The translations under genes were made by a program, and so were the position numbers. Source: Antedon mediterranea (Eukaryota > Animalia > Echinodermata). Taken from it: a stretch of 64,000 nucleotides of DNA. Numbering within the stretch: the first letter of the stretch is position 1; every line of letters begins with the position of its first letter. Below the pieces are notes generated by a model, which was given only the letters and a program-made list of their open reading frames with translations, was not told where the DNA came from and ran no database searches. Below, piece after piece: positions 20,401 through 48,196 of this stretch. The DNA lies in assembly GCF_964355755.1 (NCBI RefSeq), contig NC_092678.1, positions 14,010,352 to 14,074,351 of the forward strand, in the 5' to 3' direction.

Positions 20401-21123
20401 CTTTGTATAATTCGCTGATATTACCACATTTACTTTATTGCAATATTATATGGGCAGCTGATTATCCTTCAAATTTACATAGAATTTTCATTTTACAAAA
20501 ACGTATTGTTCGATTATTAAACTTTGAACAATCTACATCTGCATCAGAACCTTTGTTTAAAAAACTTAAAATTTTAAAAATATATGACCTTCATAAACTT
20601 CAAGTTACTTCTTTTATGTTTGAATATGTTACTGGTTTACTACCAAAGTCTGTTTCAATGTTATTTTCAAATCGTTTATTAGATCATACCTATAACATAA
20701 GAAATCCACATAAATTGTATGTTCCATTTGTTAAACTTAGAAAAAGCCAGTTTTTTATTACTTATTTAGGACCAACGTATTGGAATAATCTAGATTCAAC
20801 TGCCATAAATCATTTATATACTGTAAATTCATTTAGAAAGCATATAAAAACCCTTTATTTATCTTGTTACCAAACCTACTAAATATGTTGCGCATTGTAT
20901 AATTTATTTAATTGTATGCGTTGTATTTGTATATTTATACGGTACCGTTCTTATTTTTGTTTGAATTATTATTATTATTTTAGGGGTCAATGTGAGACAA
21001 GTTCTACTTCTAATTTTGATCCCTAAGATGGTCTTATATTAATTGTTTATTATTGTTTATTGTAATATTGTTTGTTATATATTGTGACCATCTTAAATAA
21101 ATGTATTATTGAATGAATGAATG
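17500..21123 (+). mobile_element. 5'-truncated CR1/L2-group LINE
   Basis: Endonuclease plus RT ORF2, AATAAA and (TGAA)n tail at 21110-21125, minimal AAC duplication, no ORF1. Confidence 0.88.
17776..20882 (+). pseudogene. LINE ORF2 (APE endonuclease plus RT), frameshifted near 19055 and ~19400
   Basis: HLNIRS, SETW, GGGV, IYRPP, GDFN, TLIDH, SDHLP; NYRPIS, DLSKAFD, GVPQGSVLGP, FADD. Confidence 0.92.
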
Positions 21124-21357
21124 AACTTAAATTTTCACCAAGTGTCAATACAAAATGACTTTTGGTTTATAATCTATGACCAATCATTGAAATTCATAAA
21201 ATTGCGCGTAACTTACACTGCACGACTCTAACGTCATTAAAAATATGGAGGTGCACAACTTCAGGTAAATGTCCATATAATGACAAGTTTATACAAAAGA
21301 TATATTCACAAGCAATAGGGGAATGCTGCTCACAAAAATCCGGGAAAGAAAGAAGAA

Positions 21358-22903
21358 CTAGACATGAAACTCGTCACTGTGACGAGTTAGTTATCCGCAC
21401 CACGACAAACGCCACGTGCACGTCATACGTTGGAATATTGCACACAGATAAAGATTATGGCATTATGACAAGAACTGAAGAATATGATATGCTGTTAGTG
21501 CTGAATTCTGTCAATTTTGTGTCATATAGTATATACAGTGCAAACAGTATCTGTATACATATTACATACAGTGTAAAATAGGTGAAATTACGGGACCCGC
21601 CATTTATTCCAATTTTTAACATGGCGACGGTATCAAAATGAAACACTTAGATAGCAATTTCAGAAGGAAATTATCTCAGGAACAACATATTAACGTGTGA
21701 AAGAAATTTGAATACGTAAAATATAGATGCGCACCCTTTTAAATGTTATGAACTATCACGCAAAATATGAAAATACGACTTTTTTTATTCAACTGGCAAT
21801 ATGATGACTTCACAACATCTGATTGGCAAAATGTTTACATGAATTCGTATCTACAATCCAATAGCGTCCAGAAAACGTTTTAATCATGATTATCACTTTT
21901 TATTCTGACGAGCTATAACAGATTGAACTTTACTGTAAAAATGAAAATAAGTGACCCACGTTGTTTACATTTTTAGACATGATGACGTCATAAAAATTAA
22001 AATATTTTTAACTCTTACGGAAGATAGTTGATTAACGTAGACAATATTAAAATCTCGGGGGAAATGGAATACGTATAAGCGCGATGCGCTCTGTTGAATA
22101 TGATGAGCAATAACGAAACAGACAAAAATCCTATATTTTACATTCGTGTGGCCATACGATGACGTCATAACATCCGAGAGGTAAAAATTCTGCATGAATT
22201 CATATCTACAATTTATCATCTTACACAATAAGTTAAAAAAATTGGGGTAAACCTTTGATCCCGAAGAGCTATAATAGATTCAAAATTGGCATTATTTTGA
22301 CAATATTTTATAACTTTTTTAACTAAAACGCGCACAAATGGTCTAAATCAACATGTTCGTATGACGTCATTTTAATTTGAAATGATGTTAATCTTTTTTA
22401 AACTGACTAGGAAAGGCTGTAAAATCATAATTCAAGAAAAAAACACATGATTTTCATGCTCCATGCGCAGCTTACGCGTAAAATGTTTCGTGCGCGTGGG
22501 AATGATCAGCGTAGAAAGTTGATTAGAAATTATTTTTGCGCATTTTGAAATTTTAAATGCGCGTAAGCGCGTAACTCCTTGTGAAGCATGCCATTTTTAA
22601 TCCATTGAAAGTTTGCCCTTAATATGACTTAAATTTTCACTAAGTGTCAATACAAAATAACTTTTGGTTTATAATCTATGATCAATCATTGAAATTCATA
22701 AAAACACGCGTAATTCATGTTGCGCAACTCTGACGTCATTCAAAAATAGGAGGTGCACAAGTTCACGTAAATGTCGATATGTTGACAAAGTTACGATATG
22801 TTCTGTTTACACGTTTTAGAGAAACGTGACGCACAAAAATGACAGAAGGAAAGAAGTATAATACAGAAAAAAAAAAAATATGATGAAACAGGACGATTAC
22901 AAG
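21358..22903 (+). mobile_element. HINE family 2 copy, split by the 16.3-kb insertion; its terminal hairpin lies at 39199-39228
   Basis: Starts CTAGACATGAAACTCGTCACTGTGACGAGTTAGTTATCCGC; acaggacgattacaag|...|caaggagttatccgc matches the unsplit acaggacgattacaaggagttattcgc at 15931. Confidence 0.8.
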
Positions 22904-24370
22904 TAGCCTGGGTGCAGTACAAATTTTGCGGGAAAAAATTATAGGACAAATTTTTTCTTTTTTTTCTGATAGAGTATACCATATAGAATGTCAGAAAAAA
23001 AATTCCCATCCCAGGGTCTTGGGGAAAATTTTTTACGGCACTTTTAAATTTTGGCCTATATACACACACAAATGCCTATTAACAACTACTAGGCCTAGGC
23101 TAGCTAGTATACTGGACATCATCGCTGATTTAATCATTATTATTACCCAGTCCACCCCATCCAGATATCCATCCTACCTAGGCTAGCCTATGTTAAGTTT
23201 TACAATTTTACATTAATATTATCAAAATTATAACTTTTCTATATCAATGTAAACACATTACCAGCAACAACACAGTGGATTATACAAAACATAACTCACT
23301 AAGTCCATAGGCATACTACATGCAACACTTTATATATTGACTGTATGTACAGGTATTCCAAAAGCAGTAACAATAAAATACATTTTGGGGGACAGGCCTA
23401 CCTGGCTGCGATTTTGTTTTTCGTACATAAGTTGGGGACCCCTCATGAAACGTCACAAAATAAACATGAATAATTCATCAGTTAATAAAATGTTCTTGTT
23501 CCGTTTGCACCCGAAGCATATAGCAACAAGAAGTGATTACACAAGTGCGCGCGCGGTACGATTCTAGGCCTATCTCCGCTGTGGTTGCGGCGTGCGATTT
23601 CATAAAAGAATAACGGCGTTTTGTGTGGATTGTCAAAATAATCAGCCTTTAGTTTATGGTGTTTTTAATATAATTTATTACTAAAGAATTACGTGTTAAA
23701 AAATGATAGTTTCTATTAATACTACATGTATTAGGCCTAATGTTAGTCTCTAAACCCATGTCTATTCAAGTAGTAGCTGTGTGTGTGTGTGTTAGGTATG
23801 ACACAGTCCGAGTAATACTAATATAAGTCAGCAAAATTAAACAATAAACATTACACAAAAATACATTTTTTATTCTCGTGGGTCTAATCTTTCCCATCTC
23901 ATGTGTTCATATACGCGCATTTTTCTTTGAGTACATATTGTTTGATAATAAAATAGCAGAATTACGATTAGCCTTAAAATCGCTACCTGGCTAGCAACTT
24001 GCAATACATGCAATTTAGGCCTACCTAGCCTAGACGTGACCTATGCATAAGTAATTAGAAAAGTAATAGAAGAAGATGAAGCAGAAAAACAATTTTTTTT
24101 CTTACTTACATCATCCAAATGTCTCGTGAGTTTTTATTGTAAAACTCCCGGTGATAATCAGACATTGATAACCTATGTTGAGCAGCCGAAAACGTACCGT
24201 ACAATATGGACATTGCATTGGTCGTCGAGAGCACAAACACTACGAGTGTCATCAAATCCATTTCTCTTGCATAGTGATTGTAAACGGAGAGTCGTACTAT
24301 AATACATTATACTTGTATGATGTCACCTACCCATGATGATGTCAGCTATATTTAGTACACGTAAGATGCT

Positions 24371-25035
24371 AAAATAATGGCGGTGCAATATTATTATACC
24401 TACGGTTGCAATCTGGATGCGTTATGAAATACGTCAGATACCCACCGTTTGTTGTAGATGACGTCGATATAAAGACTAATATTCACCCTAGATGCTATGT
24501 TTAATACACACACATACACACACACACATAAAATAATGATGGTGCAATATTATACCCACGCTTGCAATCTGGATGCGTTATGAAATACGTCAGATACCCA
24601 CCGTTTGTTGTAGATGACGTCGATATAAAGACTAATATTCACCCTAGATGCTATGTTTAATACACACACACACACACACACATAAAATAATGATGGTGCT
24701 ATATATTATACCCACGCTTGCAATCTGGATGCGTTATGAAATACGTCAGATACCCACCGTTTGTTGTAGATGACGTCGATATAAAGACTAATACTGTATT
24801 CACCCTAGATGCTATGTTTAATACACACACACATAAATAATGATCGTGCTATATTATACCCACGCTTGCAATCTGGATGCGTTATGAAATACGTCAGATA
24901 CCCACCGTTTGTTGTAGATGACGTCGATATAAAGACTAATATTCACCCTAGATGCTATGTTTAATACACACACATAAAATAATGATGGTGCAATATTATA
25001 CCCACCGCGTTTGTTGTGGATTATAATAAAGACTA
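24371..25035. repeat. Tandem array, ~150-160-bp unit, 4 copies plus a partial, each with a variable (CA)n tract
   Basis: ttgcaatctggatgcgttatgaaatacgtcagatacccaccgtttgttgtagatgacgtcgatataaagactaata recurs at ~24406, 24562, 24718 and 24866. Confidence 0.95.
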
Positions 25036-25337
25036 AATAATAGAGTTTAAAATACATTATAATCCGCCAAGAAACAAACAAAACCTACTATAATAATATC
25101 GAAACGTATTCGATAACAGATGCATTACTAGTTCACATGCATACAAAATCGAATCAGGCACGCAAAAGCTCGTATACCTTTCAGATACTTTACCTATATA
25201 CGCTTTAGCGAATTATTCGTTTCGCTAAGAATGCATAAAATGGAACTTGACGTTTCCAAAACATCTCAGTCGAATGTCAGATTTTGCCGAAAAGACATCT
25301 AAAAAATAAATAAATAAAAAAATTAAAAAGAATTAAA

Positions 25338-26666
25338 ATGGCAGGAAGAAGAAAAAGAAGGAAACGAGCGAAACGATGTCAAAAACGAACGAACGACCGT
25401 TGTAATTTGTGCAACCTGCCGACCGAATTGCTGCTGTACATTTTCTCCTTCATGGATTACGTGTCTCAGTTAGAGTTGGCCAACTCAAGTCCCTACATGA
25501 CCGGATTGTTGGGCGATTTGGAATTGATCGCAACCGAGGCGGCCGTACAACTGTGCAAACGTAAACGTCACGGTACGGTTGACACGTTTCAAAGCTGCCG
25601 ACCATCCGCCGGAAGCCTGTTGATGTGCGTGAAGCGAAAGTTTAAGCCGGTTCTCGATTCGCAATCGACTTTGCCGCAATTCTACATGTCTAACCTAGTG
25701 CTGAAGAATGTGCATTTTAGAGAGGGAACACTGCATCGCATCTTGGAAGAAACGGTGGTCTGCTTGGAGTATTTGGAATTGGACTCGTGCACCGGTGTTG
25801 TTTTCCACCCGGCTGCCAATCAACTAATCCCGTCGGACAAAATAGGACATTCATCGATACATTGCAAAAACATGAAAGTGCACTTGGACGACGTTCGCCA
25901 AACCCTGGTTCCCGATGGATTTTCTAGCAAATATACCTACTACGTGGTACTGACCGACTGCGACATGACGGAGACGGATCAAAATCTGAACTACAGGCTG
26001 TTGATCGTGTACGACGGCCGCTCCAACGGGGCAGATGTTGGACGTTACTTTAACCTAATCACAGTCTCGTCCGTGTGGAAAGAAACCGAAGTGTTGAAGG
26101 TTCGTCCTTACACACGAAACGAAGAAGACACAGTGTGGATGCCGATGGTCAATCGGACCAGTTTAAATGCGGCCATCGACCATTTCGCCGAATCTTCAAA
26201 AGAAACCTCTCTAGAACTTTCGTTGGACGGCTACACGGATGACCGAGTCGACATGTCAGTCGGCTTGCGATTGATGAGCTGGGACTCTTTGACCACCTTG
26301 TTTCTGCTAAATTCAATAGTGGACGAAGGTTTTCTTTCTGTTGTCATGTCGGAACATCCGAACCTGAACACGATAACGATAAAGAATTGCGAAGGTGATC
26401 CGTTCGGTGAGATGGAAACGAGCCCCAACACCGCACTGAGGCATTTGAACCTGATCGAAATGAATATCGACGAGGCAGGCATGGCTGAATTCATGACACC
26501 AATCATCAACGTCGTCAAGTTAACTTTACATAATATGTGTTTCTTCGACGAACGTCTTTTCGCTAAACGATTGTACGAGACATCCGGCTATCGTTGGCTC
26601 GATTGTGAGTATGTCCGCGAGCCAGGCGTATTGGTTCCCATTGAGATGTTTCTTGAAACGGGTTGA
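25338..26666 (+). CDS. Intronless F-box protein with a basic N-terminal NLS and LRR-like C-terminal region (442 aa)
   Basis: RRKRRKRAKR, then F-box LCNLPTELLLYIFSFMDYVSQLELA; LxxLxL units (LEYLELDSC, LTTLFLLNS, LNTITIKNC, LRHLNLIEM); AAAATGG start context; AATAAA at ~26740. Confidence 0.8.
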   Translation: MAGRRKRRKRAKRCQKRTNDRCNLCNLPTELLLYIFSFMDYVSQLELANSSPYMTGLLGDLELIATEAAVQLCKRKRHGTVDTFQSCRPSAGSLLMCVKRKFKPVLDSQSTLPQFYMSNLVLKNVHFREGTLHRILEETVVCLEYLELDSCTGVVFHPAANQLIPSDKIGHSSIHCKNMKVHLDDVRQTLVPDGFSSKYTYYVVLTDCDMTETDQNLNYRLLIVYDGRSNGADVGRYFNLITVSSVWKETEVLKVRPYTRNEEDTVWMPMVNRTSLNAAIDHFAESSKETSLELSLDGYTDDRVDMSVGLRLMSWDSLTTLFLLNSIVDEGFLSVVMSEHPNLNTITIKNCEGDPFGEMETSPNTALRHLNLIEMNIDEAGMAEFMTPIINVVKLTLHNMCFFDERLFAKRLYETSGYRWLDCEYVREPGVLVPIEMFLETG

Positions 26667-26813
26667 AGAAATCGATTTTTTTATATAACAAGTATACATA
26701 ACATGTGTTTATAATAATAACAAAACAAAAATGTTCTGTAATAAAAATGATATTTATTCGAGAAAAAGAATTATTAAAAGAAAAAGCAAATGCATTCTAT
26801 ATTTTTTTTTTTT

Positions 26814-27548
26814 TCAATCATGATGAATTTGAAATATTACAAATGTCTTCATTACATCGTCTTTGTCAGCTTCTTCTTCACTCTTCTTTAGACGGAATCT
26901 TTCGGAAATGCGAATGTCGTCCGGAATATCAGATGTAGTGAATTTAGAATATTCTTGTATGAGCTCCGGTGTCATGTGGGGATGTAATTTCTTCATGATA
27001 AATTTATATTCCTTTTGCATAGCCATCTGCGTGCCTGCTATAAACGACTTTGGAAGAGGAGAGAGTCCCTGTGGAACGTAAATGTTCTCTACTACATCAT
27101 GATAGAAAGTTGTCAAGACTTCCCTCTTTCCTGTCTTTGTAAAATCGTAAAACTGTACAATTACGCCTTTGATGTATTGCAACCGAATTCCTTGCAGATA
27201 CTCGTCCAATTCCTCAATGAAATACGTAGGCCTACGTCGACCAGTGTATGCGAATTCTATATTCGCTCCCTGGAGTAGATATGCGATCATCATTTTCAAT
27301 ATCGGTTTTCCTAACAAGTCCGTGTGTGCTATCGTTGGATGAAAGTCCATACTTTTCGAAATCCGGACATCCGCTTCCCCCGGAATGTACCATTGATGGT
27401 CATAATAAATTTCGTGAGTGGTATGGTCTGTGTAAACGTCTCGATGTACATCGTAGCCTTTGATCAACAGAATTCGTTTAAATCTCCCTTCAAAGTATTC
27501 TGTTCTTTGAATTCTCAGCTTTTCAGTTACTGATCTTCGCAGCATCAT
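26814..27548 (-). CDS. Intronless orphan protein (244 aa)
   Basis: Uninterrupted ATG-initiated ORF convergent with the F-box gene; TATAAAA upstream on the minus strand near 27595; no family recognised. Confidence 0.65.
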   Translation of the reverse strand: MMLRRSVTEKLRIQRTEYFEGRFKRILLIKGYDVHRDVYTDHTTHEIYYDHQWYIPGEADVRISKSMDFHPTIAHTDLLGKPILKMMIAYLLQGANIEFAYTGRRRPTYFIEELDEYLQGIRLQYIKGVIVQFYDFTKTGKREVLTTFYHDVVENIYVPQGLSPLPKSFIAGTQMAMQKEYKFIMKKLHPHMTPELIQEYSKFTTSDIPDDIRISERFRLKKSEEEADKDDVMKTFVIFQIHHD

Positions 27549-29608
27549 TTCCCGTTTTGTTGTGCTTTTTTTTCTGTTAAAATTTCTCTTTTTATATCTA
27601 CCATTTCCCTCGCCCCCCCCCCCCCCATAATAGCCTAATGTATGTGTGAGTGTGAGTGTCCAAAGACGCGCGGCGACGTTTAGTTTGCATCCTATTTTAC
27701 AAAAGAGATATGTGTCGTGTCACCACAAAAGGAGCTTTGGGTTGAAATTATTTTTTTTTTTTTAAATTATTATTATAATATTAATCTCCATTCTTTAAGC
27801 TTTCTAAAAAAAATAATGTAACTTGCTTTATAATTTATTTCAAGGCAATTAAGATATGACCCTATTTCAACCAAGAACTTCCGAATTCAATAGATTACTT
27901 CCGAATTCAATAGATTATCAACAATTAGAAAACAGCCTTTTAAGTTCAGTGGACCATTACATTGGTTTTATTCAATAACCACAACACATTCGCCTTGGAT
28001 ACCATTAGTTATTATTACTGAATCTACATGAAATTTTAAACACTTAAACAATGAATACGAGTATAGATTACACTTTAATTTCTTTCAATTTTATTATCAT
28101 CTTCATATATAAAATACAACAATTAAAAATTACATAATTATGTTGATTAATGGATTATTTTGAGCACACACAATCTGTTAACATAACTCACTTCTACTCT
28201 AGATCATGATTAGGCCTATACAAATTCTTACACATTCTTCTTCGTTTTCAATAACTATCCTCGCCGTCAGAATCTTCGTCGTCTATCCCCATCATCCAGG
28301 CTTTAGCATTAGCAAGAAGGCTAGCATTTAAAGCGTCAGCTATGACTTTTTCCGATCGTTCATTATCAGAATTAGACATTTCTATTAATTATATCAAACT
28401 ATTAATTTGAATGATGCAAAAGAATTATAGTATAGTTTATTAAAAGATTGTAAATTATAACACTAAAGTAGGACAATAATGTAGTAGCACACTGTAAACC
28501 TCGTGCGAACAGCTTACCAAGGTAGTAAACAATACGTCTACGCACGTTCACAAGTGATTGACCAATCAGAGGACGCGATTAGTCCCTTTTGTTTGGCTGT
28601 ATTTAAGGCCGAAGCCTTTATAAAAGTGATTGTGATTGGACTATGATTGCATATTTAAATGTTTATTCATGATATTCTGAAAGATGACGTTACAAGCTTT
28701 AAAACCATACCAGTTGTGACAATGTTTGGAAAGGCGGGAACATTCGATTGAAAAATAAGGTAGATGATTTTTGGCCGGCCGTTTACGGCTGAAATAGTCA
28801 GAATTCCACACAAAACCTTACAATATTGTCTATAAAAAAACGTCAAAATGTATGTATTTTGGAACAAAATTAAGTTTTAAGGACAAGTAAACTATAATAG
28901 TTGAATATGTCGAATATGTAAGAAAAAAAAAATTATTTTAAATTGACTATTCCAACATTCAAAGCTAATTATAGCAATATTATAGCTTTTGCGACACAAG
29001 GCCGGCGGCTCCTTTCGTTGTGACGCGACCCATATAGACGCGCGCGGGGGGGGGGGGGGAGATGTGGAGAACGCATTAGTAATGCTTAACATCAGTTTCT
29101 ATAAGAGCGAGATGAGAGAGAGAGATAGAGAGAGAGAAAAACAAAAACAAAAAAATGTGCTGTATCAAATTTATTTTCTTTTATTAATCCATAAGAAAGT
29201 GACAACATTAAAATAAAAGTGAATTACATACAAAAAGTTTTGCATTTATTTATTTGGAATTACACCTTTAGATCGGTAGCACACTTAGCACAAAGGTGCA
29301 TCCTTCACAATATAAAATATAACAATTAACAGAAAAGTAAAAAAAGGCAAAAGCAACTATCCTACCCCCCCCCCCCCCCCTCAATTTACATCGATACATA
29401 CAGTAGATCATTACTTTACACAAATGAATACAAAACAAGATATAGTAAAAGTGTACAAAATAAAATCAACTGATAAACACAGCTTATTACGTAAAAACCC
29501 CAACCTCTCCTCCCCCCCCCCCTTTTTTTTTTTCAATTTACTTAATGTAGCAATGTAGATAACATAGTTGCATTGCAGTTAAAGTTTGGTGCTGTATATA
29601 TACAATTT

Positions 29609-30124
29609 TTAAATGTCGCATACGCACAAGATTTCTATCGACATCGGCTCATATACTGCCGCGTCTACATTACATCGTTGAAAGCACTCATCCGATACGG
29701 GAATAGTTTCTGGATAACCAAACAGAGCGGGAACGCACCTTCCCACGTTTTCACCTAATGGAAAAAAGCAATGAGAACCAAACAGATCGCATCCATCATT
29801 GTCCGGTACGAGAAGCCATTGATCATCAGCCGATCGGTTTAGGCTACACGTTTCTAAAGAATATTTCATACCGTCCCATCGATCGCATTCATCACAACAC
29901 GTAACAATATGAGTACCGTCTTCGATGATGTCAATGCACGCATATTTTTCGCTCTCTCTAATGCATGCGTCGTGATATAGAAACGGCGATACTCCGTCAA
30001 CGTACACCGATCCAATTAACAAGTCCGGACGTTCATCGATGCACATTACACAACGATGGTGGTAAAGTAGTAGTAGTAATATGAGTAGTAGTAGTAAAAT
30101 GTGTTTCAACGCCTCTGTATCCAT
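29609..30124 (-). CDS. Cys-rich secreted or membrane-anchored protein (171 aa)
   Basis: N-terminal hydrophobic run ILLLLLILLLLLY followed by a cysteine-dense domain; the start overlaps the upstream ORF by 19 nt. Confidence 0.7.
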   Translation of the reverse strand: MDTEALKHILLLLLILLLLLYHHRCVMCIDERPDLLIGSVYVDGVSPFLYHDACIRESEKYACIDIIEDGTHIVTCCDECDRWDGMKYSLETCSLNRSADDQWLLVPDNDGCDLFGSHCFFPLGENVGRCVPALFGYPETIPVSDECFQRCNVDAAVYEPMSIEILCVCDI

Positions 30125-30396
30125 GCGTCACAATTGGTTCTGATGTAAAGCGATACCAACGAAAACAAAGGCCAATGTCTTGTCTCATTATGTTCTGTAA
30201 CGGGCATGCAAACGTGATGAAAATGTTTTGAGAATCCACTTCGTATAGACGCTGATATGACGTGTGACGGAGGACGAGGTCCGGCGTTTTCAAATTTTAC
30301 GAACCTGTTCAATTTGGTTGGAGCCATAGAATGCCAAGACCTTGTTGCCGGGTTGTAACCGCCAATCATGCGTGGTATTCCGTCTAATACGTCGTA
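30106..30396 (-). CDS. Probable -1-frame C-terminal continuation of the kelch-like protein
   Basis: The track ORF 30106-30441 starts at GTG, not ATG; it contains kelch-like IGGYNPATRSWHSMAP and joins the upstream ORF at a T7 run (30396-30402). Confidence 0.55.
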   Translation of the reverse strand, partial: YDVLDGIPRMIGGYNPATRSWHSMAPTKLNRFVKFENAGPRPPSHVISASIRSGFSKHFHHVCMPVTEHNETRHWPLFSLVSLYIRTNCDAWIQRR

Positions 30397-32258
30397 AAAA
30401 AAGGAAACTTTACGGTTGATCTGACTTTTTGCCTGAACCACGGGCCGTGTTTTTCATTACGTTTGAAAACATGTTCATTGTTGACAACAAAAATGTGTCC
30501 ACTGTCGTGTATAAGCGACGTGTTTTTGTCCAAGTGTCGAATGTATGATTTGGCAAAATTATCAACGAAACGAGACGGAAGTATTCTGTTCGGAATGTCA
30601 ACGTCGGCCATCAATTGGCTCGAGATTATTGAAAGCTTAGAAACAACCGTTTTAGGCTCAGCTCTAGTGCACATGACGTTGCCGATAGTGAACAGTTCGA
30701 TTTCACCGTTTGACTCGTTTCCTTTGCACCATTTACTCGAGTAATAACGATACGTCGTATTGAAAGCAAACCACTCTTTTCGTATCGTGTCATACACGAA
30801 TCCATATTTTTCAGTATCGCATCTACTCGTGTCGGTTCCTAGAAAGTCTAACATGTCAGTCGGTGCGCCGGTTTCGAATCTACCACCAACAAACACTAGC
30901 AATCTATCCAGAAAACAAAACATTTGCATTCCACAACGATGCCGGCAAACGACAGGCATTTCGCCAATTTTAGTCCATTCTGCTATACCGCCCTTGTTCA
31001 GGGTTTCTCTGGTGCACTCGTACACTTGAAAATCTGTTTCAAAGACGGCGTACAGTGTGTTCTTGTTACTCGTGCAACTTAAAACGCCCTTTATTGTTAC
31101 GTCATGAAACAATGGTCGAATGACAAGTATGGTTGTACCTGTGAACGCGTGATTCATGTACACGTCACCGGAAGAAAGAACGGTAAAAACAGATGCGTTC
31201 GGTGTGTCCTGACAGGCAAGTTGACGTTCCGGTGGTCGAGCAGACATTTTCAAGAGCGTCTTGATTCTGTCGGTGGTTCGTAAATCATCGACGACGACGT
31301 TGTTGTTGTGTTCGTTCATTCTATACGGCGAGAATACGGACGAGTCGAGAAGAATGCCCATGCTTGTCGCGTTGATCTTGTTGTCGGGCAATGATGCAAC
31401 CCATACGGTCACTAACCGATTCACGTCTGCATTGTAACCGCTTTTGCGAGCGTTTCGACTCAGTAATTTGTCAAAGAAACATGGCGGAATCTGAGACATC
31501 CACATGGAAATCAAATCTGGTTTCTTAACAAACAAATCGTGAATGAGCGGTGCCCAGAAAATCAACGAATCGGCAATGACACTCGATATTGCGTATGCTT
31601 TTTCCCGTTGGATTGTCGCGTGAATCAATTGGAGTACAACTGCAGTTCTAATCGGATCAAAAAACATTACTGTCGCTTCTTTCGAAATTGTTTCAATTGT
31701 ATCCGTTGAGATTTTTGGGAATACAATGCCTGTGTTTATGAGCATTTGCTTGATTTTATCCAGAGCAATTGTATTGTTCAAGTACACAGACAGTTTTGTA
31801 AACGAAACGATGTTTTCAATTGTAAACGGTTCATTTCTTTTGGTAAAGTTGTTTACGGCGTTTGCGTCCAACCATTTCGGTACTTTATACCAAATGTTGC
31901 CGCTTACTTTATCTTTTACAAAATGAAGATTTCTTATCTTATTTTTTGAGTCGTCGTGTTGTACTCTGTACGACGAATCGGTATCACGTTCCAAAAACCC
32001 GTCGTCGTATACATCACCTGTATGCTGCTGCTGCTCCGGTTGAACTTCAGTCTCCGAATCAATTTCGGGCACGTTATTCGGCGGCCGTTGAAATATTTCA
32101 TAATTTAAAGGTGTTACGGTAGCAGATTTTGCTAACGTTGAAGGTCCATCATCATCATCATCTTCATCATCAGATGATATCCACACAGTATCAAGTTTTC
32201 TTACTTTCTTACTGTCTTCGTGACGTTCATTAGAACCGTGCCTGCGTCTGGACGCCAT
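30384..32258 (-). CDS. Kelch-like beta-propeller protein with a basic/acidic N-terminus (624 aa from first ATG; ~717 aa if frameshift-extended)
   Basis: WTKIGEMPVVCRHRCGM..LLVFVGG and YDTIRKEW resemble kelch blades; first ATG (MASRRRH) at 32258; intronless and CpG-rich. Confidence 0.7.
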   Translation of the reverse strand: MASRRRHGSNERHEDSKKVRKLDTVWISSDDEDDDDDGPSTLAKSATVTPLNYEIFQRPPNNVPEIDSETEVQPEQQQHTGDVYDDGFLERDTDSSYRVQHDDSKNKIRNLHFVKDKVSGNIWYKVPKWLDANAVNNFTKRNEPFTIENIVSFTKLSVYLNNTIALDKIKQMLINTGIVFPKISTDTIETISKEATVMFFDPIRTAVVLQLIHATIQREKAYAISSVIADSLIFWAPLIHDLFVKKPDLISMWMSQIPPCFFDKLLSRNARKSGYNADVNRLVTVWVASLPDNKINATSMGILLDSSVFSPYRMNEHNNNVVVDDLRTTDRIKTLLKMSARPPERQLACQDTPNASVFTVLSSGDVYMNHAFTGTTILVIRPLFHDVTIKGVLSCTSNKNTLYAVFETDFQVYECTRETLNKGGIAEWTKIGEMPVVCRHRCGMQMFCFLDRLLVFVGGRFETGAPTDMLDFLGTDTSRCDTEKYGFVYDTIRKEWFAFNTTYRYYSSKWCKGNESNGEIELFTIGNVMCTRAEPKTVVSKLSIISSQLMADVDIPNRILPSRFVDNFAKSYIRHLDKNTSLIHDSGHIFVVNNEHVFKRNEKHGPWFRQKVRSTVKFPFFTTY

Positions 32259-32311
32259 CGCAATACTACAGCAACACGCACGCACACACACAATATGATC
32301 GCTAATATTAC

Positions 32312-32644
32312 TCACTTCAATAACTGCTTAAGAAATGTGGTTAACGTTTCAGAATATTCCTCCTTGTTTTTACTGGAACTAGCAAATTCACGTGCAACGT
32401 GAAGTGTGACAATAATGCGGCCCTCATTCACGTGGCCGTCTTCAAACATGCCCACGAGCAGATCGTGTAATGACTTGGCGCTGCGACATTTCACCTTATC
32501 AACTTGATTCTTGATTTCAGTTTTCAATTCTGCGTTGCTAAATGTTTCCGGATATTCACGTTCAACTTTTTCCTCGTTTTCCAAATAATTTTTGGCCAAA
32601 ACGATCAATTTATCAACATCAAAACCACCGTTTCTCTTTAACAT
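32312..32644 (-). CDS. Truncated Bcl-2-like protein (110 aa from first ATG)
   Basis: MFEDGHVNEGRIIVTLHVA matches the BH1 pattern (LFxDG.NWGRIVxL) with W to E; BH3-like EKVEREYPETFSN upstream; no BH2 or transmembrane tail; TATAAA just upstream. Confidence 0.65.
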   Translation of the reverse strand: MLKRNGGFDVDKLIVLAKNYLENEEKVEREYPETFSNAELKTEIKNQVDKVKCRSAKSLHDLLVGMFEDGHVNEGRIIVTLHVAREFASSSKNKEEYSETLTTFLKQLLK

Positions 32645-32822
32645 CTTGTTCAACAATATTTCTTTTTTTGAAGTGACTTTCTCGTTTATACGCACATCAA
32701 TTTATAGTACCGGAATGATTCTCTGTCAACAATCCCGTTTGTACGGTTCCGGTCTAGGATTTGCGTTTGTGATGACCGCTATGTTATGTAAATGAGCCTG
32801 TGCAGCTGGTGTATTAATAATT

Positions 32823-32865
<43 letters not shown>

Positions 32866-32890
32866 ACACACACGTTTCATAAGTTTGGTT

Positions 32891-33515
32891 ATGGATTCAG
32901 AACAGGGCTTAATTGGAGACCAGGGGTATGCTACGTCTAAAGCCAAAAACTTGGACATTAACCAGGTATCTGATGGTTTTGATGCCAAGTTGAACAATTT
33001 TAAAAGGCATGTTGCCGAGGAGTCATATTCAGCATTGAAACGTGCTCGGTCAGCGCATTTCAACGATGAATTAAAGATAGTGTATGAAAACAACGATCAG
33101 AGTGAAACGCTCACCGAAGGTATTATGATTCTTGAGAAATGACAAAAATTAAAAAATTTAAAAAAATAAATAAATAAATAAATAATTTATAATAGCTTAT
33201 TTTTTTTATTATTTTTTGTGTGTTTCAGATGAAGACTTTGGACCACTCACAGATCTGCGTATTTCCGAGTTGGCAAGAGAGCTGGGCAATGATTGGTCAA
33301 TGATAGCAACATATTTAGGAATTTCACTCGCTCAACAACAAGATTTACGTCAGGCTCATTACATTTGTAGTCGGGAACGTAATCAAGAAATGCTTGTTAT
33401 ATGGCGCAAGAGAGATTCATGCTGCCAAAAATCAGACAAACTACAATCATTAATGAATGCATTGGAAAAAAGTGGAAGAATCGACTTAAAAAACAAAATC
33501 AGTCTATGGCAATGA
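32891..33515 (+). CDS. Death-domain protein, two exons (32891-33119 and 33229-33515), 171 aa
   Basis: LTDLRISELARELGNDWSMIATYLGIS..QEMLVIWRKR..LMNALEKSGRIDL is a death-domain pattern; GAAG|GTATTA donor and pyrimidine-rich TTTCAG|AT acceptor give a phase-matched 109-bp AT-rich intron. Confidence 0.78.
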
Positions 33516-33846
33516 AAGTCAAAACTATAGCATTCGTATTTATAAAAGGTGTACGGTAGAGTACGTTTCTTCAATAATGAATCATAGCATTCGATCTATA
33601 TTAGTTTTGTTTTGAAAAGAGTTTATTAAAAAAAGAAAACACCTTTAACCGAGAACACCGTGTACTGTTATTGTAAAAAAATTTCGTTTCTAAAAGTTCA
33701 CGTTCACAACAAGAAGGATAGCGCGCAAGCAACTTGGCCATCTAGAATTCGTTCGATAATGTTTTAGAAAAAAATAAAAGCTTTACTTCGACGCCTAATG
33801 ACAGCGTGCGTCAATGTTTTAAAAAAGAGAGAACATACTTCCCCCT

Positions 33847-36800
33847 TATATACAATAACGTTTATAACTTTCCAGATCATACTTCTTTTTCTATTCGATT
33901 ACAGTTTCTAATGATAGCATACTTCAGGAATGATCCTGATTGTTCTTATATTAATTATTATACATGGTTTCTTAAATCCAAACACACTCTTATTCTAGAA
34001 AGTTCATGTAGATACATACACCGTCTCTTTACCGAATGAACTGATAAGGTCGTGCAATCAATAAGAGGCATAACATGCCGTGCATTCGTCGTGCGTTGTA
34101 TATCGAGAGAACAAATGAAAATATTGTTTACTTCGAGAATAAGCAATACACCGTCTCTTTACCGAATGAGCTGATAAGGTCGTGCAATCAGTAACAGGCA
34201 TAACATGCCGTGCATTCGTCGTGTGTTGTATATCGAGAGAACAAATGAAAATATTGTTTACTTCGAGAATAAGCAATACACCGTCTCTTTACCGAATGAG
34301 CTGATAAGGCCGCGCAATCAGTAACAGGCATAACATGCCGTGCATTCATCGCGTGTTGTATAATTATTATACATGGTTTCTTAAATCCAAACACACTCTT
34401 ATTCTAGAATGTTCATGTAGATACATACACCGTCTCTTTACCGAACTAACTGATAAGGTCGTGCAATCAATAAGAGGCATAACATGCCGTGCATTTGTCG
34501 TGGGTTGTATATCGAGAGAACGGATGAAAATCTTTTTTTTTTTTTTTTTACTTCTAGAAGAAGCAATACACCGTCTCCTTACCAATCGAGCTGATAAGGA
34601 AGGCCGCGCAATCAGTAACATGCATAACATGCCGTGCATTCATCGCGTGTTGTATAATTATTATACATGGTTTCTTAAATCCAAACACACTCTTATTCTA
34701 GAATGTTCATGTAGATACATACACCGTCTCTTTACCGAATGAACTGATAAGGTCGTGCAATCAATAAGAGGCATAACATGCCGTGCATTCGTCGCCTGTT
34801 GTATATCGAGAGAACAAATGAAAATATTGTTTACTTCGAGAATAAGCAATACACCGTCTCTTTACCGAATGAGCTGATAAGGCCGTGCAATCAGTAACAG
34901 GCATAACATGCCGTGCATTCATCGCGTGTTGTATAATTATTATACATGGTTTCTTAAATCCAAACACACTCTTATTCTAGAATGTTCATGTAGATACATA
35001 CACCGTCTCTTTACCGAATGAACTGATAAGGTCGTGTAATAAATAAGAGGCATAACATGCCGTGCATTTGTCGTGGGTTGTATATCGAGAGAACGGATGA
35101 AAATCTTTTTTTTTTTTTTTACTTCGAGAAGAAGCAATACACCGTCTCCTTACCAATGGAGCTGATAAGGAAGGCCGCGCAATCAGTAACATGCATAACA
35201 TGCCGTGCATTCATCGCGTGTTGTATAATTATTAGACATGGTTTCTTAAATCCAAACACACTCTTATTCTAGAATGTTCATGTAGATACATACACCGTCT
35301 CTTTACCGAATGAACTGATAAGGTCGTGCAATCAATAAGAGGCATAACATGCCGTGCATTCGTCGCCTGTTGTATATATACAATAATGTTTATAACTTTC
35401 CAGATCATACTTCTTATTCTATTCGATTACAGTTTCTAATGATAGCATACTTCAGGAATGGTCCTGATTGTTCTTATATTAATTATTATAGGCCTACATG
35501 GTTTCTTAAATCCAAACGCACTCTTATTCTAGAATGTTCATGTAGATACATACACCGTCTCTTTACCGATCGAGTTGGATACGGTCGTGCAATCAATAAG
35601 AGGCATAACATGCCGTGCATTCATCGCGTGTTGTATACCGAGAGAACAAATGAAAATATTGTTTACTTCGAGAATAAGCAATACACCGTCTCTTTACCGA
35701 TCGAGTTGATAAGGCCGTGCAATCAGTAACAGGCATAACATGCCGTGCATTCATCGCGTGTTGTATAATTATTATACATGGTTTCTTAAATCCAAACACA
35801 CTCTTATTCTATAATGTTCATGTAGATACATACACCGTCTCTTTACCGAACTAACTGATAAGGTCGTGCAATCAATAAGAGGCATAACATGCCGTGCATA
35901 CGTCGTGTGTTGTATATCGAGAGAACGGATGAAAATATTTTTTTTTTTTTTTTTTTTACTTCGAGAAGAAGCAATACACCGTCTCCTTACCAATGGAGCT
36001 GATAAGGAAGGCCGCGCAATCAGTAACATGCATAACATGCCGTGCATTCATCGCGTGTTGTATAATTATTATACATGGTTTCTTAAATCCAAACACACTC
36101 TTATTCTAGAATGTTCATGTAGATACATACACCGTCTCTTTACCAATCGAGTTGATACGGTTGTGCAATCAATAAGAGGATAACATGTCGTGCATTCGTC
36201 GCCTGTTGTATATATACAATAATGTTTATAACTTTCCAGATCATACTTCTTATTCTATTCGATTACAGTTTCTAATGATAGCATACTTCAGGAATGGTCC
36301 TGATTGTTCTTATATTAATTATTATAGGCCTACATGGTTTCTTAAATCCAAACACACTCTTAGTCTAGAATGTTCATGTAGATACATACACCGTCTCTTT
36401 ACCGATCGAGTTGATACGGTCGTGCAATCAATAAGAGGCATAACATGCCGTGCATTCGTCGCCTGTTGTATATCGAGAGAACAAATGAAAATATTGTTTA
36501 CTTCGAGAATAAGCAATACACCGTCTCTTTACCGAATGAGCTGATAAGGCCGTGCAATCAGTAACAGGCATAACATGCCGTGCATTCATCGCGTGTTGTA
36601 TAATTATTATACATGGTTTCTTAAATCCAAACACACTCTTATTCTAGAATGTTCATGTAGATACATACACCGTCTCTTTACCGAATGAACTGATAAGGTC
36701 GTGTAATCAATAAGAGGCATAACATGCCGTGCATACGTCGTGTGTTGTATATCGAGAGAACGGATGAAAATCTTTTTTTTTTTTTTTTACTTCGAGAAGA

Positions 36801-38057
36801 AGCAATACACCGTCTCTTTACTAATGGAGCTGATAAGGAAGGCCGCGCAATCAGTAACATGCATAACATGCCGTGCATTCATCGCGTGTTGTATAATTAT
36901 TATACATGGTTTCTTAAATCCAAACACACTCTTATTCTAGAATGTTCATGTAGATACATACACCGTCTCTTTACCGATCGAGTTGATACGGTTGTGCAAT
37001 CAATAAGAGGCATAACATGCCGTGCATTCGTCGCCTGTTGTATATATACAATAATGTTTATAACTTTCCAGATCATACTTCTTATTCTATTCGATTACAG
37101 TTTCTAATGATAGCATACTTCAGGAATGGTCCTGATTGTTCTTATATTAATTATTATAGGCCTACATGGTTTCTTAAATCCAAACACACTCTTATTCTAG
37201 AATGTTCATGTAGATACATACACCGTCTCTTTACCGAATGAACTGATAAGGTCGTGCAATCAATAAGAGGCATAACATGCCGTGCATTCGTCGCCTGTTG
37301 TATATCGAGAGAACAAATGAAAATATTGTTTACTTCGAGAATAAGCAATACACCGTCTCTTTACCGAATGAGCTGATAAGGCCGTGCAATCAGTAACAGG
37401 CATAACATGCCGTGCATTCATCGCGTGTTGTATAATTATTATACATGGTTTCTTAAATCCAAACACACTCTTATTCTATAATGTTCATGTAGATACATAC
37501 ACCGTCTCTTTACCGAACTAACTGATAAGGTCGTGCAATCAATAAGAGGCATAACATGCCGTGCATACGTCGTGTGTTGTATATCGAGAGAACGGATGAA
37601 AATCTTTTTTTTTTTTTTTTTACTTCGAGAAGAAGCAATACACCGTCTCCTTACCAATGGAGCTGATAAGGAAGGCCGCGCAATCAGTAACATGCATAAC
37701 ATGCCGTGCATTCATCGCGTGTTGTATAATTATTATACATGGTTTCTTAAATCCAAACACACTCTTATTCTAGAATGTTCATGTAGATACATACACCGTC
37801 TCTTTACCGATCGAGTTGATACGGTTGTGCAATCAATAAGAGGCATAACATGCCGTGCATTCGTCGCCTGTTGTATATATACAATAATGTTTATAACTTT
37901 CCAGATCATACTTCTTATTCTATTCGATTACAGTTTCTAATGATAGCATATTTCAGGAATGGTCCTGATTGTTCTTATATTAATTATTATAGGCCTACAT
38001 GGTTTCTTAAATCCAAACAAACTCTTATTCTAGAATGTTCATGTAGATACATACACC
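33847..38057. repeat. Complex tandem array: ~25 copies of a ~75-bp core with 3-4 alternating linker types, forming an ~834-bp higher-order repeat
   Basis: Core atacaccgtctctttaccgaatgaactgataaggtcgtgcaatcaataagaggcataacatgccgtgcattc; the long linker recurs at 35381, 36217, 37049 and 37882. Confidence 0.95.
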
Positions 38058-39028
38058 ACACAAATACCTATATATAGGGGATAGGGAAAACCAATTCACG
38101 TTTTTTTTTTACTTGGAGTTGTGTTATGATGATTAAAATTTGCTGAGGCTTACTTTAATAACTACTTCTCATAGTAGTTGATAAATCGAGTCGATAACAA
38201 TGACATCATCATGCCAGAATCCAATATGGCGTCCAATTTGGCGGAAAAAACAGGGTATTGCTAACCCCGCAAACCCTTGCAAACCTACTTGTAAAAAAAA
38301 ACATAGCAAACCCCACCGAACCAACACAAAAGTGTAGTGATTGAATCATGTAGTGTACGACCCACTGGGTATATCCATGTAAAAAAAAAAATTAAATTTC
38401 TACGGTTAACTACTTATTTTTGGGGTAAAACCTCATTTTTTGGTCAAAAATGATTGCTAAACCCTGCAAACCTCCAAAAAAACATAGCAATCCCCACCGA
38501 AACAACATAATAAAAGTGATTGAATCATGTAGTGTACGACCCACTGGGTATATCCATGTTTAAAAAAAATAAAATTTCTACTGTTAACTACTTATTTTTG
38601 GGGTAAAACATCATTTTTTTTGTAAAAAATGATTGTTAATTTTTAACCAAAAAATGATGTTTTATCCCAAAAATAAGTAGTTAATTCAGTAGAAATTTTA
38701 ATTTTTTTTTACATGGACATACCCAGTGGGACGAACACTCCATGATTCAATCACTTTTATGTCGGTTCGGTGCGGTTTTCTATGGTTTTTTTTAGGTTTT
38801 CAGGGGTTTGCGGGGGTTTAGCAATACCCTGTTTTTCCCGCCAAATTGGACGCCATATTGGATTCTGGCATGATGATGTCATCGTATCAACTTGATTCAT
38901 CAACTACTATGAGAAGTAGTTATTAAAGTAAGCCTCTACTAATTTTAATCATTAAAACACAACTGCAAGTAACAAAAACTGTTAATTGATTTCCCTATCC
39001 CGTGTATGTTAATAGGAATTTGTGTGTG
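38057..39028. repeat. ~970-bp foldback (imperfect palindrome) forming the inner body of the TIR element
   Basis: gggatagggaaa..ctttaataactacttctcatagtagttgat..atgccagaatccaatatggcgtccaatttggcgg is mirrored at 38640-39001; the left arm has an internal ~180-bp duplication. Confidence 0.9.
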
Positions 39029-39198
39029 TTCTATAGGCCAAAATTTAAAAGTGCCATGAAAAATTTTCCCCAAGACCCTGGGATGGGGATTTTTTTTCTG
39101 ACATTCCATATGGTATACTTTATAAGAAAAACCAAAAAAACATTTTCCTATACTTTTTTCCCGCAAATGTGTATAATAATTGTTCTGCACCCAGGCTA

Positions 39199-39733
39199 CA
39201 AGGAGTTATCCGCTACTAAGCGGATAACAAATAAAGATGAAAAAAAAAGATATTTACAATCACAAGGGTTATCCGCAACTTAATAAGTTGCGGATAACCA
39301 ATTAATAAGTTGCGGATAACCAAAAAAAGATATTTACAATAACATGGGTTATCCGCAACTACTAAGTTGCGGACAACCAATGAAAAAAAAGATATTTACA
39401 ATAACAAGGGTTGTCCACAACTACTAAGTTGCGGATAGCCAACTAGATTTGAACTCGTCAAAATGACCTTTGGTTTATAATCTATGACCAATCATTGAAA
39501 TTCATAAAATTGCGAGTAACTTACGCTGCGCGACTCTAACGTCATTAAAAATATGGAGGTGCACAACTTCAGGTAAATGTCCATATAATGACAAAGTTAT
39601 ACAAAAGATATATTCACAAGCAATAGGGGATATGCTGTAGACAAAAATCCGGGAAAGAAAGAAGAATAACAAAGAAGATGAAAAAGATATTTACAATCAC
39701 AAGGGTTATCCTGCAACTAAGTTGCGGATAACC
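39199..39733 (+). repeat. Stack of HINE terminal hairpins plus an internally deleted HINE (39443-39733)
   Basis: Repeated aaaagatatttacaat(c/a)aca(a/t)gggttatccgcaact..agttgcggataacc units; CTAGATTTGAACTCGTCA at 39443 is fused directly to the distal block. Confidence 0.8.
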
Positions 39734-41118
39734 AAAAAAAAAAAAGATCCGGACAATAACCAATTAATCAAAACATATCCCAAAGGCCTCTATAATTCTT
39801 AAAAACGAAGTACTGTAGGAAAAGTTGGTAATATCTGGATGTATTTTAAGAGTTGAAGATGATCTTTGACTGACTAAACAATAGACTGTTTATAATACCA
39901 GGTTTGCATGTTCATAGTAGGAAACTGCTAGGAGGCAATAGAGAGTGAACATTAAATTAAGATAAAAGATATCTTTCTGTAGTCAACACCTTTCAGTACA
40001 TCTATGAATGAATAAGTAGTTGAGAGCAGGAATGCTAGTAAACTAAACCCAGTACCATTTTGATTTGACAAGAAATTATCTCTCTCTCTTTTGAAAATGT
40101 CTTCAACACATTCAGGTATTCTGTAGGAGTATAGTATCTTGGTGTGTAAAAGTTTATTAATAATTGTCTTTGTTACATGTTTAGAAGAGAATTTATATCT
40201 GATCGTAGTTGTACTACACTGTTTGGTAAGCCGTGTGTTGTTATTCAAATGAGTTTTTGTTTGTTAATTTTTTGTTAATTTTGTATATTAGAAGTTGCCT
40301 AGTATTGTATTAACTTTTTCCTGCCATACAACTTTATGCTGTACTGTTGGTTACACCGGTAGGGAGATATCTGGTTCATGCCAGATATTTTATTGTAATA
40401 TGTTATGCATTAATATTAATCGCTCTTGATCTTGGAACTTTAAATATTGTGTGGTCGCCACTCGAGGCTGGATGGAATTTTTTTAGAGATTTTTCCCCGA
40501 TTCGGTTATCAGGGGTTTTATTCATTGCCTATCGCAAGGTTAAGAGTGTTTTAGTAGAACATTACAGGTTAGCATCTGTTTGCCTTCAGTTCATTTAATT
40601 GAAAACAGAACAGAAAAGTAAAAAACACACGACTATTTAATTTTCGTCATTTTATCTAGAAACGAATATTGCATTTATTTTGTTTGTTTGTTATTTATAC
40701 GGGGTTATGGAAGTTGGCGTGTGTGACCGCACTTTCCCAGAATAAACATGTTTTAAACAGATATTTTGTCTCCATTGGTTCATGTATGGGGTTAACAGTG
40801 GCTGAGATGAGATCCAAATTTAACTGTGCTGTGGGCATTAGGTTAGATCGATCACACTCCCACACCTCAAAAGACAAGGCCTGCTATTGGTTAATAAAGG
40901 ATTTAAAGCAACTTACTGAGATCTAAATGTTGAACTTTTGGGCGATCTGAGTATGGATCATTTTTGTACAATGTATCCAGTATCTTCTCCTTTACTTGAC
41001 TGATGGTGTCACAGCTAAGAACTTTCACTTTTTGAAATGCACCACTGTCAGAATGTTGTATTGCATTCAGTGTCTGTAAAATAAAAATAAAATTTATTTC
41101 TAGAATATTAAGTTGTAA

Positions 41119-42659
41119 CTAGAATTTAATTCGTCACTTTGACGAATTATAGGTGATCATTTTTATCATTTTATTGACATTCATATTTTTTAAACATGCA
41201 CGTATGTTAACATACAATCGGAAAATGTTGATGTATGCCATCCTATTATACGCTATAGTGCTGAGTTGTGCCTATCATATGCCATATATACATTATGTAC
41301 AGTATATACTGTATATCTATATACAGTGTAGCATTAGTGAAATTAGGGACACACATCGTGTTCTAATTTTTTGGCACTGATGACATTATCAAAATAAACT
41401 TGTGGATAACAATATCGAAAGATAAAGAATTGAGCAATAAAATATAACAATTGGAAGAAAATTTGGCACGTAGAAGCGCGGTGCACGCTCTTTAAAATTT
41501 GTATAACTTTGACGAAAGAGATGAAAAATTTGCTTTTTAACTTCAACTTGCCATATTATAACGTCACAAGATTCCATAGGCTTAATTTTTATATAAATTC
41601 ATATCTACATTTAACCAGCTCTAATAATAAGTTATAAACATCAAGGTCAACTTTAATTCAGAAGAGCTGTAAGTTATTCAAATGTACCTTATAGGTGAAT
41701 TTACGTAACCACAGTTATTCAAATTTTAAGACGTGATGACGTCATCAAAATGAAAATGTTGGCAACTCATGAGTAACATAATTGGTTGAGGTAGAATATA
41801 TTAAAATTATAAAAGAAAATCAATTACAGATAAGCGAGTTGCGCTCTGTTGAATATGGTAGTCTATAACAAAAGGGGAAAAAACCCTGTTTTAAAAATAC
41901 ATGTGGCCCAAATGATGACATCATTCCATTTTGTACGTCTAATGTGTATATACATTTATATCTACAACTCATTGGCTTCCATAATAAGTTAAAAAAATTG
42001 GGGGTCACCTTCCATTCTGAACAGTTATATTCATTTTAAAAAGGCCTTATTTTTTACAATTTTTAGCACTTTTGTATAATTAATGTGCGCATTTTGTCAT
42101 TTTTAACGTGCTCGTATAGCACTATTTTAAGTCGAAATGGACTCAAATTTGTTGAATGTACTATGGAAGTTGAGTAGAATGCAATTTGTACCAAAAAAAT
42201 GATATTTTTTACGCTTTCTATGTACGCACGCGCAAAAACGTGTTTTTGCGCAGTAATTTTTTAAAACATGCAAATGGCCTGCTCTAAATTGATCAAAACG
42301 TAATTTTGAGCTTTTTAAATTTTTAACGCGCTCACGCGCATGACCCTGCGTGCTCGTGCGTTTTTATTTGCTAATATTTTTACCCTTGACCTGATGTTTA
42401 CGTGTAGTGAATTCATTAATATGTGATAATTAATTATGGAGATATGATTGATATTGCAATTTCACAAAATGGCATATAAATGACGTCACGGGTGAGGGAT
42501 CACGCTGAAAAGCTTATTAGGACTAAGTTAAAGTATTTGAAAGACATTCTGAAATTTTGATAATCATTGACATTAAAGTTTTTGAGATATTTGTTACACA
42601 AAATCTGTACAGAAAGAAATTGCAAAGAAACATTTTTTTTTTACAAAAACAATTTCTCA
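41119..42659 (+). mobile_element. HINE family 3 copy lacking its terminal hairpin
   Basis: Starts CTAGAATTTAATTCGTCACTTTGACGAATTATAGGTGATCA; homologous to 42660-44212 and, inverted, to 46673-48195. Confidence 0.8.
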
Positions 42660-44212: not shown

Positions 44213-44661
44213 TTAAAGTAATGAATATAGTACACACACAAGAGAAAGTAAATACAGAGATTAACTCTGACTGTTTACTGTTGTTTTAATAGAAATCCAT
44301 TGTGGCCATGAAATTTCATCTAATAATGAAAATGGAATGCATGTATACAGGGAAATAGTTAATAGAATACATACAATGACTTGAGGACGTTTGTCTGACT
44401 GAAGGCAATCATCAAGGTTCAATGAGTATGTAGCACGTCCAGTAATGGCATCTACTGGACCCATCTCAATCCTTAACTTCAGTGCATGGTACAGAACATA
44501 CAGTGGATGCCCGGCATAGTCCTGTAAAACACAATGTTTAAATGAGCAAATGGCCAAAAAGTTAAGACATTGGAACTGTAATCCATAGCCTTATGCCAAG
44601 GGTTTGAGGCTCACTTGCTCCATGGTTCTGGTGGTAGAACGAGTCTTCTTGGATAGTTAAT

Positions 44662-48195: not shown

Positions 48196-48196
48196 T

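Follow-up and report, generated by a model that had tools for sequence, protein, structure and literature searches.

RESULTS

A foldback element carrying a 15-kb cargo

We analyzed a 64,000-nucleotide stretch of Antedon mediterranea DNA (assembly GCF_964355755.1, contig NC_092678.1, forward-strand positions 14,010,352 to 14,074,351; hereafter the window), an animal-type sequence of 33% GC in which a noncoding foldback element, a miniature inverted-repeat transposable element (MITE) at 22904-39198 with TAG..CTA ends and 14-bp perfect inverted ends, is interrupted in its left arm by 15 kb of other DNA, the cargo. At this locus there is one insertion site, a pair of foldback arms, a young foreign cargo from another family, and three junctions, and the explanation that we favor, with some reserve, is that the cargo was copied into the MITE by template-switch break repair and not by an integrase of its own. 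The features of the locus are as follows.

22900-22903, + strand: left target-site duplication CAAG (empty paralogous sites hold one CAAG)
22904-23084, + strand: outer left arm, beginning TAGCCTGGGTGCAG; high-copy family in organisms A and B
23065-23084, + strand: left copy of the 20-bp junction repeat (right copy at 38057 to about 38072)
23085-23224, + strand: first 140 bp of cargo; flanked in a sibling contig by other letters (14 upstream, 100 downstream)
23222-23224, + strand: internal junction with a 3-bp overlap, TCA; additional sequence is present here in siblings from organisms A and B
23408-23983, no strand assigned: nested 576-bp high-copy repeat with 8-bp inverted ends and a 9-bp target duplication, TACCTGGCT
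24370-25005, + strand: tandem array 1, about four copies of a ~150-bp unit
25338-26666, + strand: 442-amino-acid (aa) open reading frame (ORF) with a putative N-terminal F-box (E = 8.5e-4, below the Pfam cutoff) and a weak leucine-rich-repeat-like hint
26814-27548, - strand: 244-aa orphan ORF
29609-30441, - strand: two Cys-rich orphan ORFs of 171 and 111 aa
30384-32258, - strand: 624-aa orphan ORF, BACK/kelch-like by eye only, without database support
32312-32701, - strand: Bcl-2-like ORF (Pfam E = 1.7e-4, below the cutoff) with a BH1-like motif
32891-33515, + strand: death-domain gene (Pfam E = 3e-10)
33840-38056, + strand: tandem array 2, 25 units of 130 to 260 bp sharing one core
38057-38640, + strand: resumed left arm, comprising the right junction-repeat copy, a 12-bp palindrome (38067-38078), and a 185-bp tandem duplication
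38641-39198, + strand: right arm, ~560 bp, ending CTGCACCCAGGCTA
39199-39202, + strand: right target-site duplication CAAG

The right end of the MITE is the exact complement of its left end, TAGCCTGGGTGCAG, and the arms pair over their length: 22904-23084 aligned with 39007-39198 at 168 matches, 11 mismatches, and 6 gaps, and 38057-38460 aligned with 38630-39026 at 349 matches, 38 mismatches, and 11 gaps. The region from 38057 to 39198 was predicted to fold into a single long hairpin (-351 kcal/mol, a value without a shuffle control at that length). This pairing bears out the initial annotation, which had placed the cargo inside the left arm of a foldback element, and the letters and coordinates that it gave for the break (23084) and the resumption (38057) were confirmed. 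Its element length of ~1.3 kb agrees with the 1,303 bp that remain once the cargo is subtracted, a figure that includes the 185-bp tandem duplication of the left arm, whose two copies are 8% apart and private to the window copy; without this duplication the element measures ~1.12 kb.

The MITE is embedded in an older host repeat, paralogues of which are present in the window, and their empty sites hold a single CAAG in four of five cases and AAAG in the fifth; the probability of a CAAG target duplication arising by chance at one fixed place is 0.003. Since CAAG occurs once in four of the five empty paralogues, the duplication is real and both outer ends derive from one insertion, so the match is not the coincidence that the initial annotation had allowed for. 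A 2-bp AA duplication likewise rebuilds the empty site, but we rated it below CAAG because, among the contigs listed, three of the four that pass the MITE end into other flanks start at 22904. A TA-type duplication was rejected, as it fails to rebuild the empty site. TAG..CTA is the terminal signature of Academ elements. Both its ends and its 4-bp duplication make the MITE resemble a nonautonomous, AcademX-type Academ element, for which target duplications of 3 or 4 bp are given (PMC10045372), an assignment drawn from the ends only.

Three junctions of the cargo

The left arm halts at 23084, and at 38057 the MITE takes up again from a point that lies 20 bp upstream within the element. The short duplicated junction described initially is therefore real, and it can now be defined as a 20-bp repeat, with one substitution and a 4-bp gap separating its left and right copies. 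The variant in the right copy, AAATACCTATA, follows the arm in six contigs of organism B (agreement, 0.71), which identifies it as a variant of the family. The right copy also contains the perfect 12-bp palindrome at 38067-38078, and given this palindrome a snap-back origin of the repeat is possible; foldback insertions at DNA breaks have reportedly been described (PMC11724301).

For the contig comparison, which covered the left (23084/23085) and internal (23224) junctions, the records around the junctions were the 32 longest of about 7,900 pieces. The main sibling contig of run X1 (depth, 1056) matches the window from position 23085 itself onward, and the 14 letters that it carries ahead of this left junction are different. 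At the internal junction, sibling contigs either stop at 23224, with 100 letters left unmatched, or start at 23222, with 48 unmatched, and contigs of organism B hold other sequence there, 238 letters in one and 4.3 kb in another. A segment was likely lost across the 3-bp overlap at 23224, as a deletion private to the window copy. The right junction falls inside the core of tandem array 2, where a single base is common in register and the 6-nucleotide (nt) ATACAC is common one base out of register; the earlier placement of this junction on a shared CAC was inexact.

MITE and cargo as separate families of different age

Across the left junction, the summed contig depth fell from 37,138 to 1,120 in run X1 (~33-fold) and from 18,368 to 270 in run X5 (~68-fold), contig depth being a crude guide and not a copy number. 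This drop, together with the 14 non-MITE letters upstream of 23085 in the main cargo contig, indicated that the MITE, whose family is highly abundant in organisms A and B, and the cargo belong to separate families. The depth left over for junction contigs was 64 units at the left junction and 0 at 23224; the MITE-cargo composite is not the common form, and because contigs drop rare variants the depth arithmetic shows only that much.

Over 25010-32820, the cargo differed from six main X1 contigs at 10 of 4,490 letters (0.22%); these are six of the eight X1 contigs listed, the two omitted, with 22 and 25 differences in about 260 letters, representing a diverged subfamily. MITE segments differ by 6 to 12% among themselves, and of the 181 letters of the outer left arm at least 3 are private, being read otherwise by at least 97% of the family depth. 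The MITE sequence thus predates the split of the cargo from its siblings. Two differences within the 20-bp repeat have a probability of 0.004 at the cargo rate and of 0.06 at a rate of 1%, while between two copies of the MITE family they are expected (0.6 to 0.8). The repeat copies are therefore too different for so young a cargo, and re-entry on a second template explains them better than target-site duplication does.

Composition and distribution of the cargo

The ORFs of the cargo are dense, mostly single-exon, and unlike the host in composition. The ratio of observed to expected CpG was 1.16 to 1.52 in five of the six coding blocks and 0.90 in the death-domain block, compared with 0.48 to 0.54 in host DNA and 0.74 to 0.81 in the long interspersed nuclear elements (LINEs) and the Helitron of the window. 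The death-domain gene has two predicted exons separated by a putative in-frame GT-AG intron (33120-33228). The nested 576-bp repeat at 23408-23983 is presumably Mutator-like, judging by the length of its perfect 9-bp duplication. Other very high-depth repeats lie in the cargo at ~29244-29496 and 27816-28400, with neither ends nor a duplication found. Arrays 1 and 2 showed no likeness to each other beyond chance (best E = 0.14).

Parts of the cargo occur in ten sequencing runs from four studies and in organisms A, B, and C; the contigs of organism B are 93 to 100% alike, and those of organism C, at low depth, 88 to 99%. None of the runs listed was identified as RNA; run X9, RNA only by conjecture, was left aside for expression. 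The nested 576-bp repeat is present in siblings from organism A and absent from the organism B contig, and since siblings share this host repeat, the donor copy lay in a chromosome. The left 1.3 kb of the cargo is ~92% alike in organism B at a depth of 152, compared with 327 to 661 for the genes, and may be host flank that was carried along. Between organisms A and B, the region of the 624-aa orphan (30504-32139) is 98 to 100% alike, versus ~92% for the left noncoding part, a likeness that could reflect strong constraint or recent exchange.

The selection test used 40 differences shown of 513. Thirty-six lie inside ORFs, and the F-box ORF accounts for 30 of these; 23 of the 36 fall at third codon positions (P = 2e-4) and 19 of the 36 are synonymous, versus 22% expected in a calculation without transition bias. 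These results support purifying selection on the F-box ORF, the remaining ORFs having too few rows.

Database searches

No homologue of the 624-aa, 442-aa, or Bcl-2-like ORF was found in a set of 5.8 billion proteins restricted to near lengths. The 244-aa ORF gave a single match among 1.84 billion representatives, a low-complexity repeat protein that we discarded, and no usable match in an Atlas search. Four cargo queries found no match among viral contigs, one cargo query none among metagenome contigs, and three orphans none among PDB sequences, while NCBIfam and PHROGs returned only a weak Bcl-2 for the cargo proteins. Single-sequence AlphaFold models were too poor (predicted local distance difference test scores, 35 and 32) and their fold matches meaningless (template-modeling score, ~0.1). 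Rfam gave no match; the MITE end pattern gave five matches in metagenomes, all five confined to the 19- to 20-bp pattern, and these were dismissed as chance.

No transposase, integrase, or terminal repeat was found in the cargo, and neither were the Polinton/Maverick features (protein-primed polymerase, integrase, long terminal inverted repeats [TIRs], and 6-bp duplication). Viral hallmarks (polymerase, capsid, packaging ATPase, and terminase) are likewise absent from the 15-kb fragment, the parent family being longer than the fragment. Helitrons are marked by a TC start, a CTRR end with a hairpin, and an A-T target, and such ends are absent from both strands at the ends of the cargo fragment. 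A literature search, with most subscription papers and Repbase outside its scope, yielded no description of the donor family and no report of a comparable gene block within a MITE.

Other elements of the window

Copies of one 1.5-kb host repeat family, ~80% alike, occupy 14275-17499, 21129-22903, and 45128-46673; they terminate in short palindromic units and are prone to nested insertions. A ~7-kb element at 41117-48197, kin to the host repeat surrounding the MITE, is bounded by inverted ends of 138 bp with 100% complementarity and contains nested inverted repeats, and no clear target duplication was found for it. The window also contains two LINE-type elements (1187-3562 and 17776-20882), both with reverse transcriptase and one also with endonuclease, a broken Helitron-like element (9651-14232) with pieces corresponding to STPR repeats, DUF6570, OTU, PIF1 helicase, and endonuclease, and a minisatellite (62245-62763; 11 copies of a 47-bp unit, 98% matches).

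DISCUSSION

How could a 15-kb gene block have come to lie inside one arm of a MITE? In the sequence of events that we propose, a break would have occurred ~180 bp into the left arm of the hairpin-prone MITE, and the broken end would have joined a chromosomal copy of the donor family without homology, copying 140 bp before skipping ahead over the 3-bp overlap and continuing through the genes into array 2. Synthesis would then have left the array at ATACAC and returned to MITE sequence at a point 20 bp before the break, using what was probably a second template, either another copy of the MITE family or the other arm. Such a re-entry would explain the imperfect 20-bp repeat and possibly also the 8%-diverged 185-bp duplication, and junctions that are blunt, overlapping by 3 bp, and matching over 6 nt near register form the pattern expected of template switching. 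As both MITE ends were kept, the composite would be mobilizable in trans, although the contig data gave no sign of its amplification.

The initial annotation had offered capture by microhomology-mediated repair or template switching, or else recombination between two MITE copies. In support of the former are the separate-family cargo, the near-register match on the right, and the third junction, while the left junction lacks microhomology. As for the latter, a second MITE template is likely, but two independent insertions alone are excluded by the single CAAG duplication. The two proposals are not mutually exclusive, since the divergence of the repeat makes a second template likely. We agree with the annotation that capture and transposition cannot be placed in order from this window; the data add only that the MITE is older than the split between the cargo and its siblings.

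Similar captures are known. Tan et al. (2021) described animal Pack-TIRs, together with gap-filling and FoSTeST models and the case of Ssk-FB4 in Drosophila, and noted small gaps, breakpoints within the element, and, in 68% of animal Pack-TIRs, microhomology at one breakpoint or more (PMC8277862). The window element is like these Pack-TIRs in being nonautonomous, with both TIR ends, a target duplication, and an internal breakpoint, and in having lost almost no element sequence; as in the FB4 case, the carrier is a foldback element. As to microhomology, the right breakpoint shares 1 nt in register and 6 nt one base off, and none was seen at the left one. Copies of the cargo 99.8% alike and free of the MITE are found in the X1 contigs, where Pack-TIRs are defined by a parental copy elsewhere of at least 90%. 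The definition also asks for non-transposon DNA with a single unambiguous parent, and the cargo belongs to a multi-copy family with subfamilies. It differs in its 15-kb size and whole ORFs, in having been taken from an orphan family of several copies and not from a unique host locus, and in that element sequence was duplicated, not deleted, at the break. Pack-MULEs also carry foreign genes between TIRs and can be mobilized in trans; they are mostly 1 to 2 kb, with none above 7 kb in the set cited (PMC6431247), and the window element, with its 4-bp duplication and TAG ends, is not a MULE. The capture is thus likely a large variant of a known Pack-TIR-like process, 15 kb being unusually large.

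Several observations speak against template-switch capture or weaken its support. For gap filling, a tract of 15 kb is long. No microhomology was seen against the main sibling contig at the left junction, which looks blunt, and the ATACAC match on the right, found in 0.18% of 200,000 random array-arm joins (chance, ~0.002), comes from a post hoc test in CA-rich sequence. No full-length cargo-free MITE copy was seen among contigs of 100 to 300 bp, and none of the records listed bridges the window-specific junctions, which this one assembly provides (contigs drop rare variants). The age contrast between private left-arm letters and cargo divergence (Fisher P = 0.012) is weakened because the MITE majority letters pool subfamilies. 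A main cargo contig depth of ~950 to 1200, against ~130 to 330 for contigs that look locus-specific, suggests a multi-copy cargo family with several copies plus more diverged subfamilies, a reading based on single-contig depths, and depth is not copy number.

The same break, copying, and re-entry could have taken place at another locus, with the MITE transposase then moving the finished composite here as a 16.3-kb unit, whether FoSTeST-like or a two-MITE composite. The 14-bp ends and the CAAG duplication are both perfect, and the two arms, as well as the junction copies, seem to represent different members of the MITE family; yet no contig of high depth links MITE and cargo (excess depth, 64 at the left junction and 0 at the internal one), two independent truncations within 25 bp have a chance of 0.04, and animal Pack-TIRs are mostly single-copy and arise in place (PMC8277862), so that we regard such a transfer as rather unlikely. 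Still less credence attaches to the cargo being an element with ends of its own that inserted into the MITE, the 20-bp repeat being its target duplication. A direct repeat does flank the cargo on both sides, and the sibling contig begins just 14 letters before the junction, which may indicate that a terminus is close by, but the repeat copies are two events apart against a cargo divergence of 0.2% (P = 0.004 to 0.06), the right end of the cargo is cut within an array core, the upstream sequence extends by at least another 151 letters in organism B, and the cargo yielded no terminal repeat, integrase, or transposase. An assembly chimera, in which a collapsed array was joined to a high-copy MITE, would fit a right junction lying within a 4-kb array and the want of a bridging contig among the records listed; it would, however, have to come back to the very MITE copy that it had left, 20 bp before the point of exit, and to restore the CAAG site and a continuous host repeat, and the cargo copy has private differences instead of majority letters, which makes this explanation highly improbable.

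Template-switch capture leaves the identity of the donor as a separate matter. We consider it likely that the donor is an endogenous large DNA virus or a family of giant transposons, so far undescribed, with host-manipulation genes, the virus-like label being suggested by gene types, density, composition, and arrays. Like Teratorn, a piggyBac-herpesvirus fusion (PMC6431247), the cargo is a virus-like gene block bounded by DNA-transposon ends, but unlike Teratorn it has neither transposase nor herpesvirus core genes and is a single low-copy fragment with no sign of movement as a unit. Endogenous large double-stranded DNA (dsDNA) viral regions have been surveyed in invertebrate genomes by criteria of two or three viral hits (bioRxiv 10.1101/2025.04.19.649669); the gene block resembles them in its compactness and non-host composition and differs in having zero viral matches, below the threshold of that survey. 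Captured by the same mechanism, the cargo might instead be an ordinary host segmental duplication of fast-evolving immune or apoptosis genes, an alternative that we hold to be doubtful but worth keeping in view: no viral hallmark or homologue was found in the searches, one intron is predicted, the left 1.3 kb with its nested repeat is host-like, and related copies occur in three organisms, but the ORFs are dense and mostly single-exon, coding CpG exceeds that of host DNA, arrays lie on either side, and there are several diverged subfamilies. More speculatively, and we think improbably in this full form, the cargo (F-box, Bcl-2-like, and death-domain genes, orphans, and arrays) may be the host-manipulation arm of an undescribed endogenous large DNA virus lineage amplifying in several related animals, 15-kb pieces of which host MITEs would repackage into TIR-bounded units movable by host transposase, a Teratorn-like fusion at its first step.

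As a capture event, the locus agrees with what is known of Pack-TIRs, though it is far larger than the Pack-MULEs covered by PMC6431247. The donor matters more than the capture: its orphan genes form a young, CpG-rich block, present in multiple copies and in at least three organisms, that is recognized by no protein search and is under purifying selection where tested. This block points to a virus-like or giant mobile family, so far undescribed, in an animal lineage. The locus represents one route by which such genes may acquire transposon ends.

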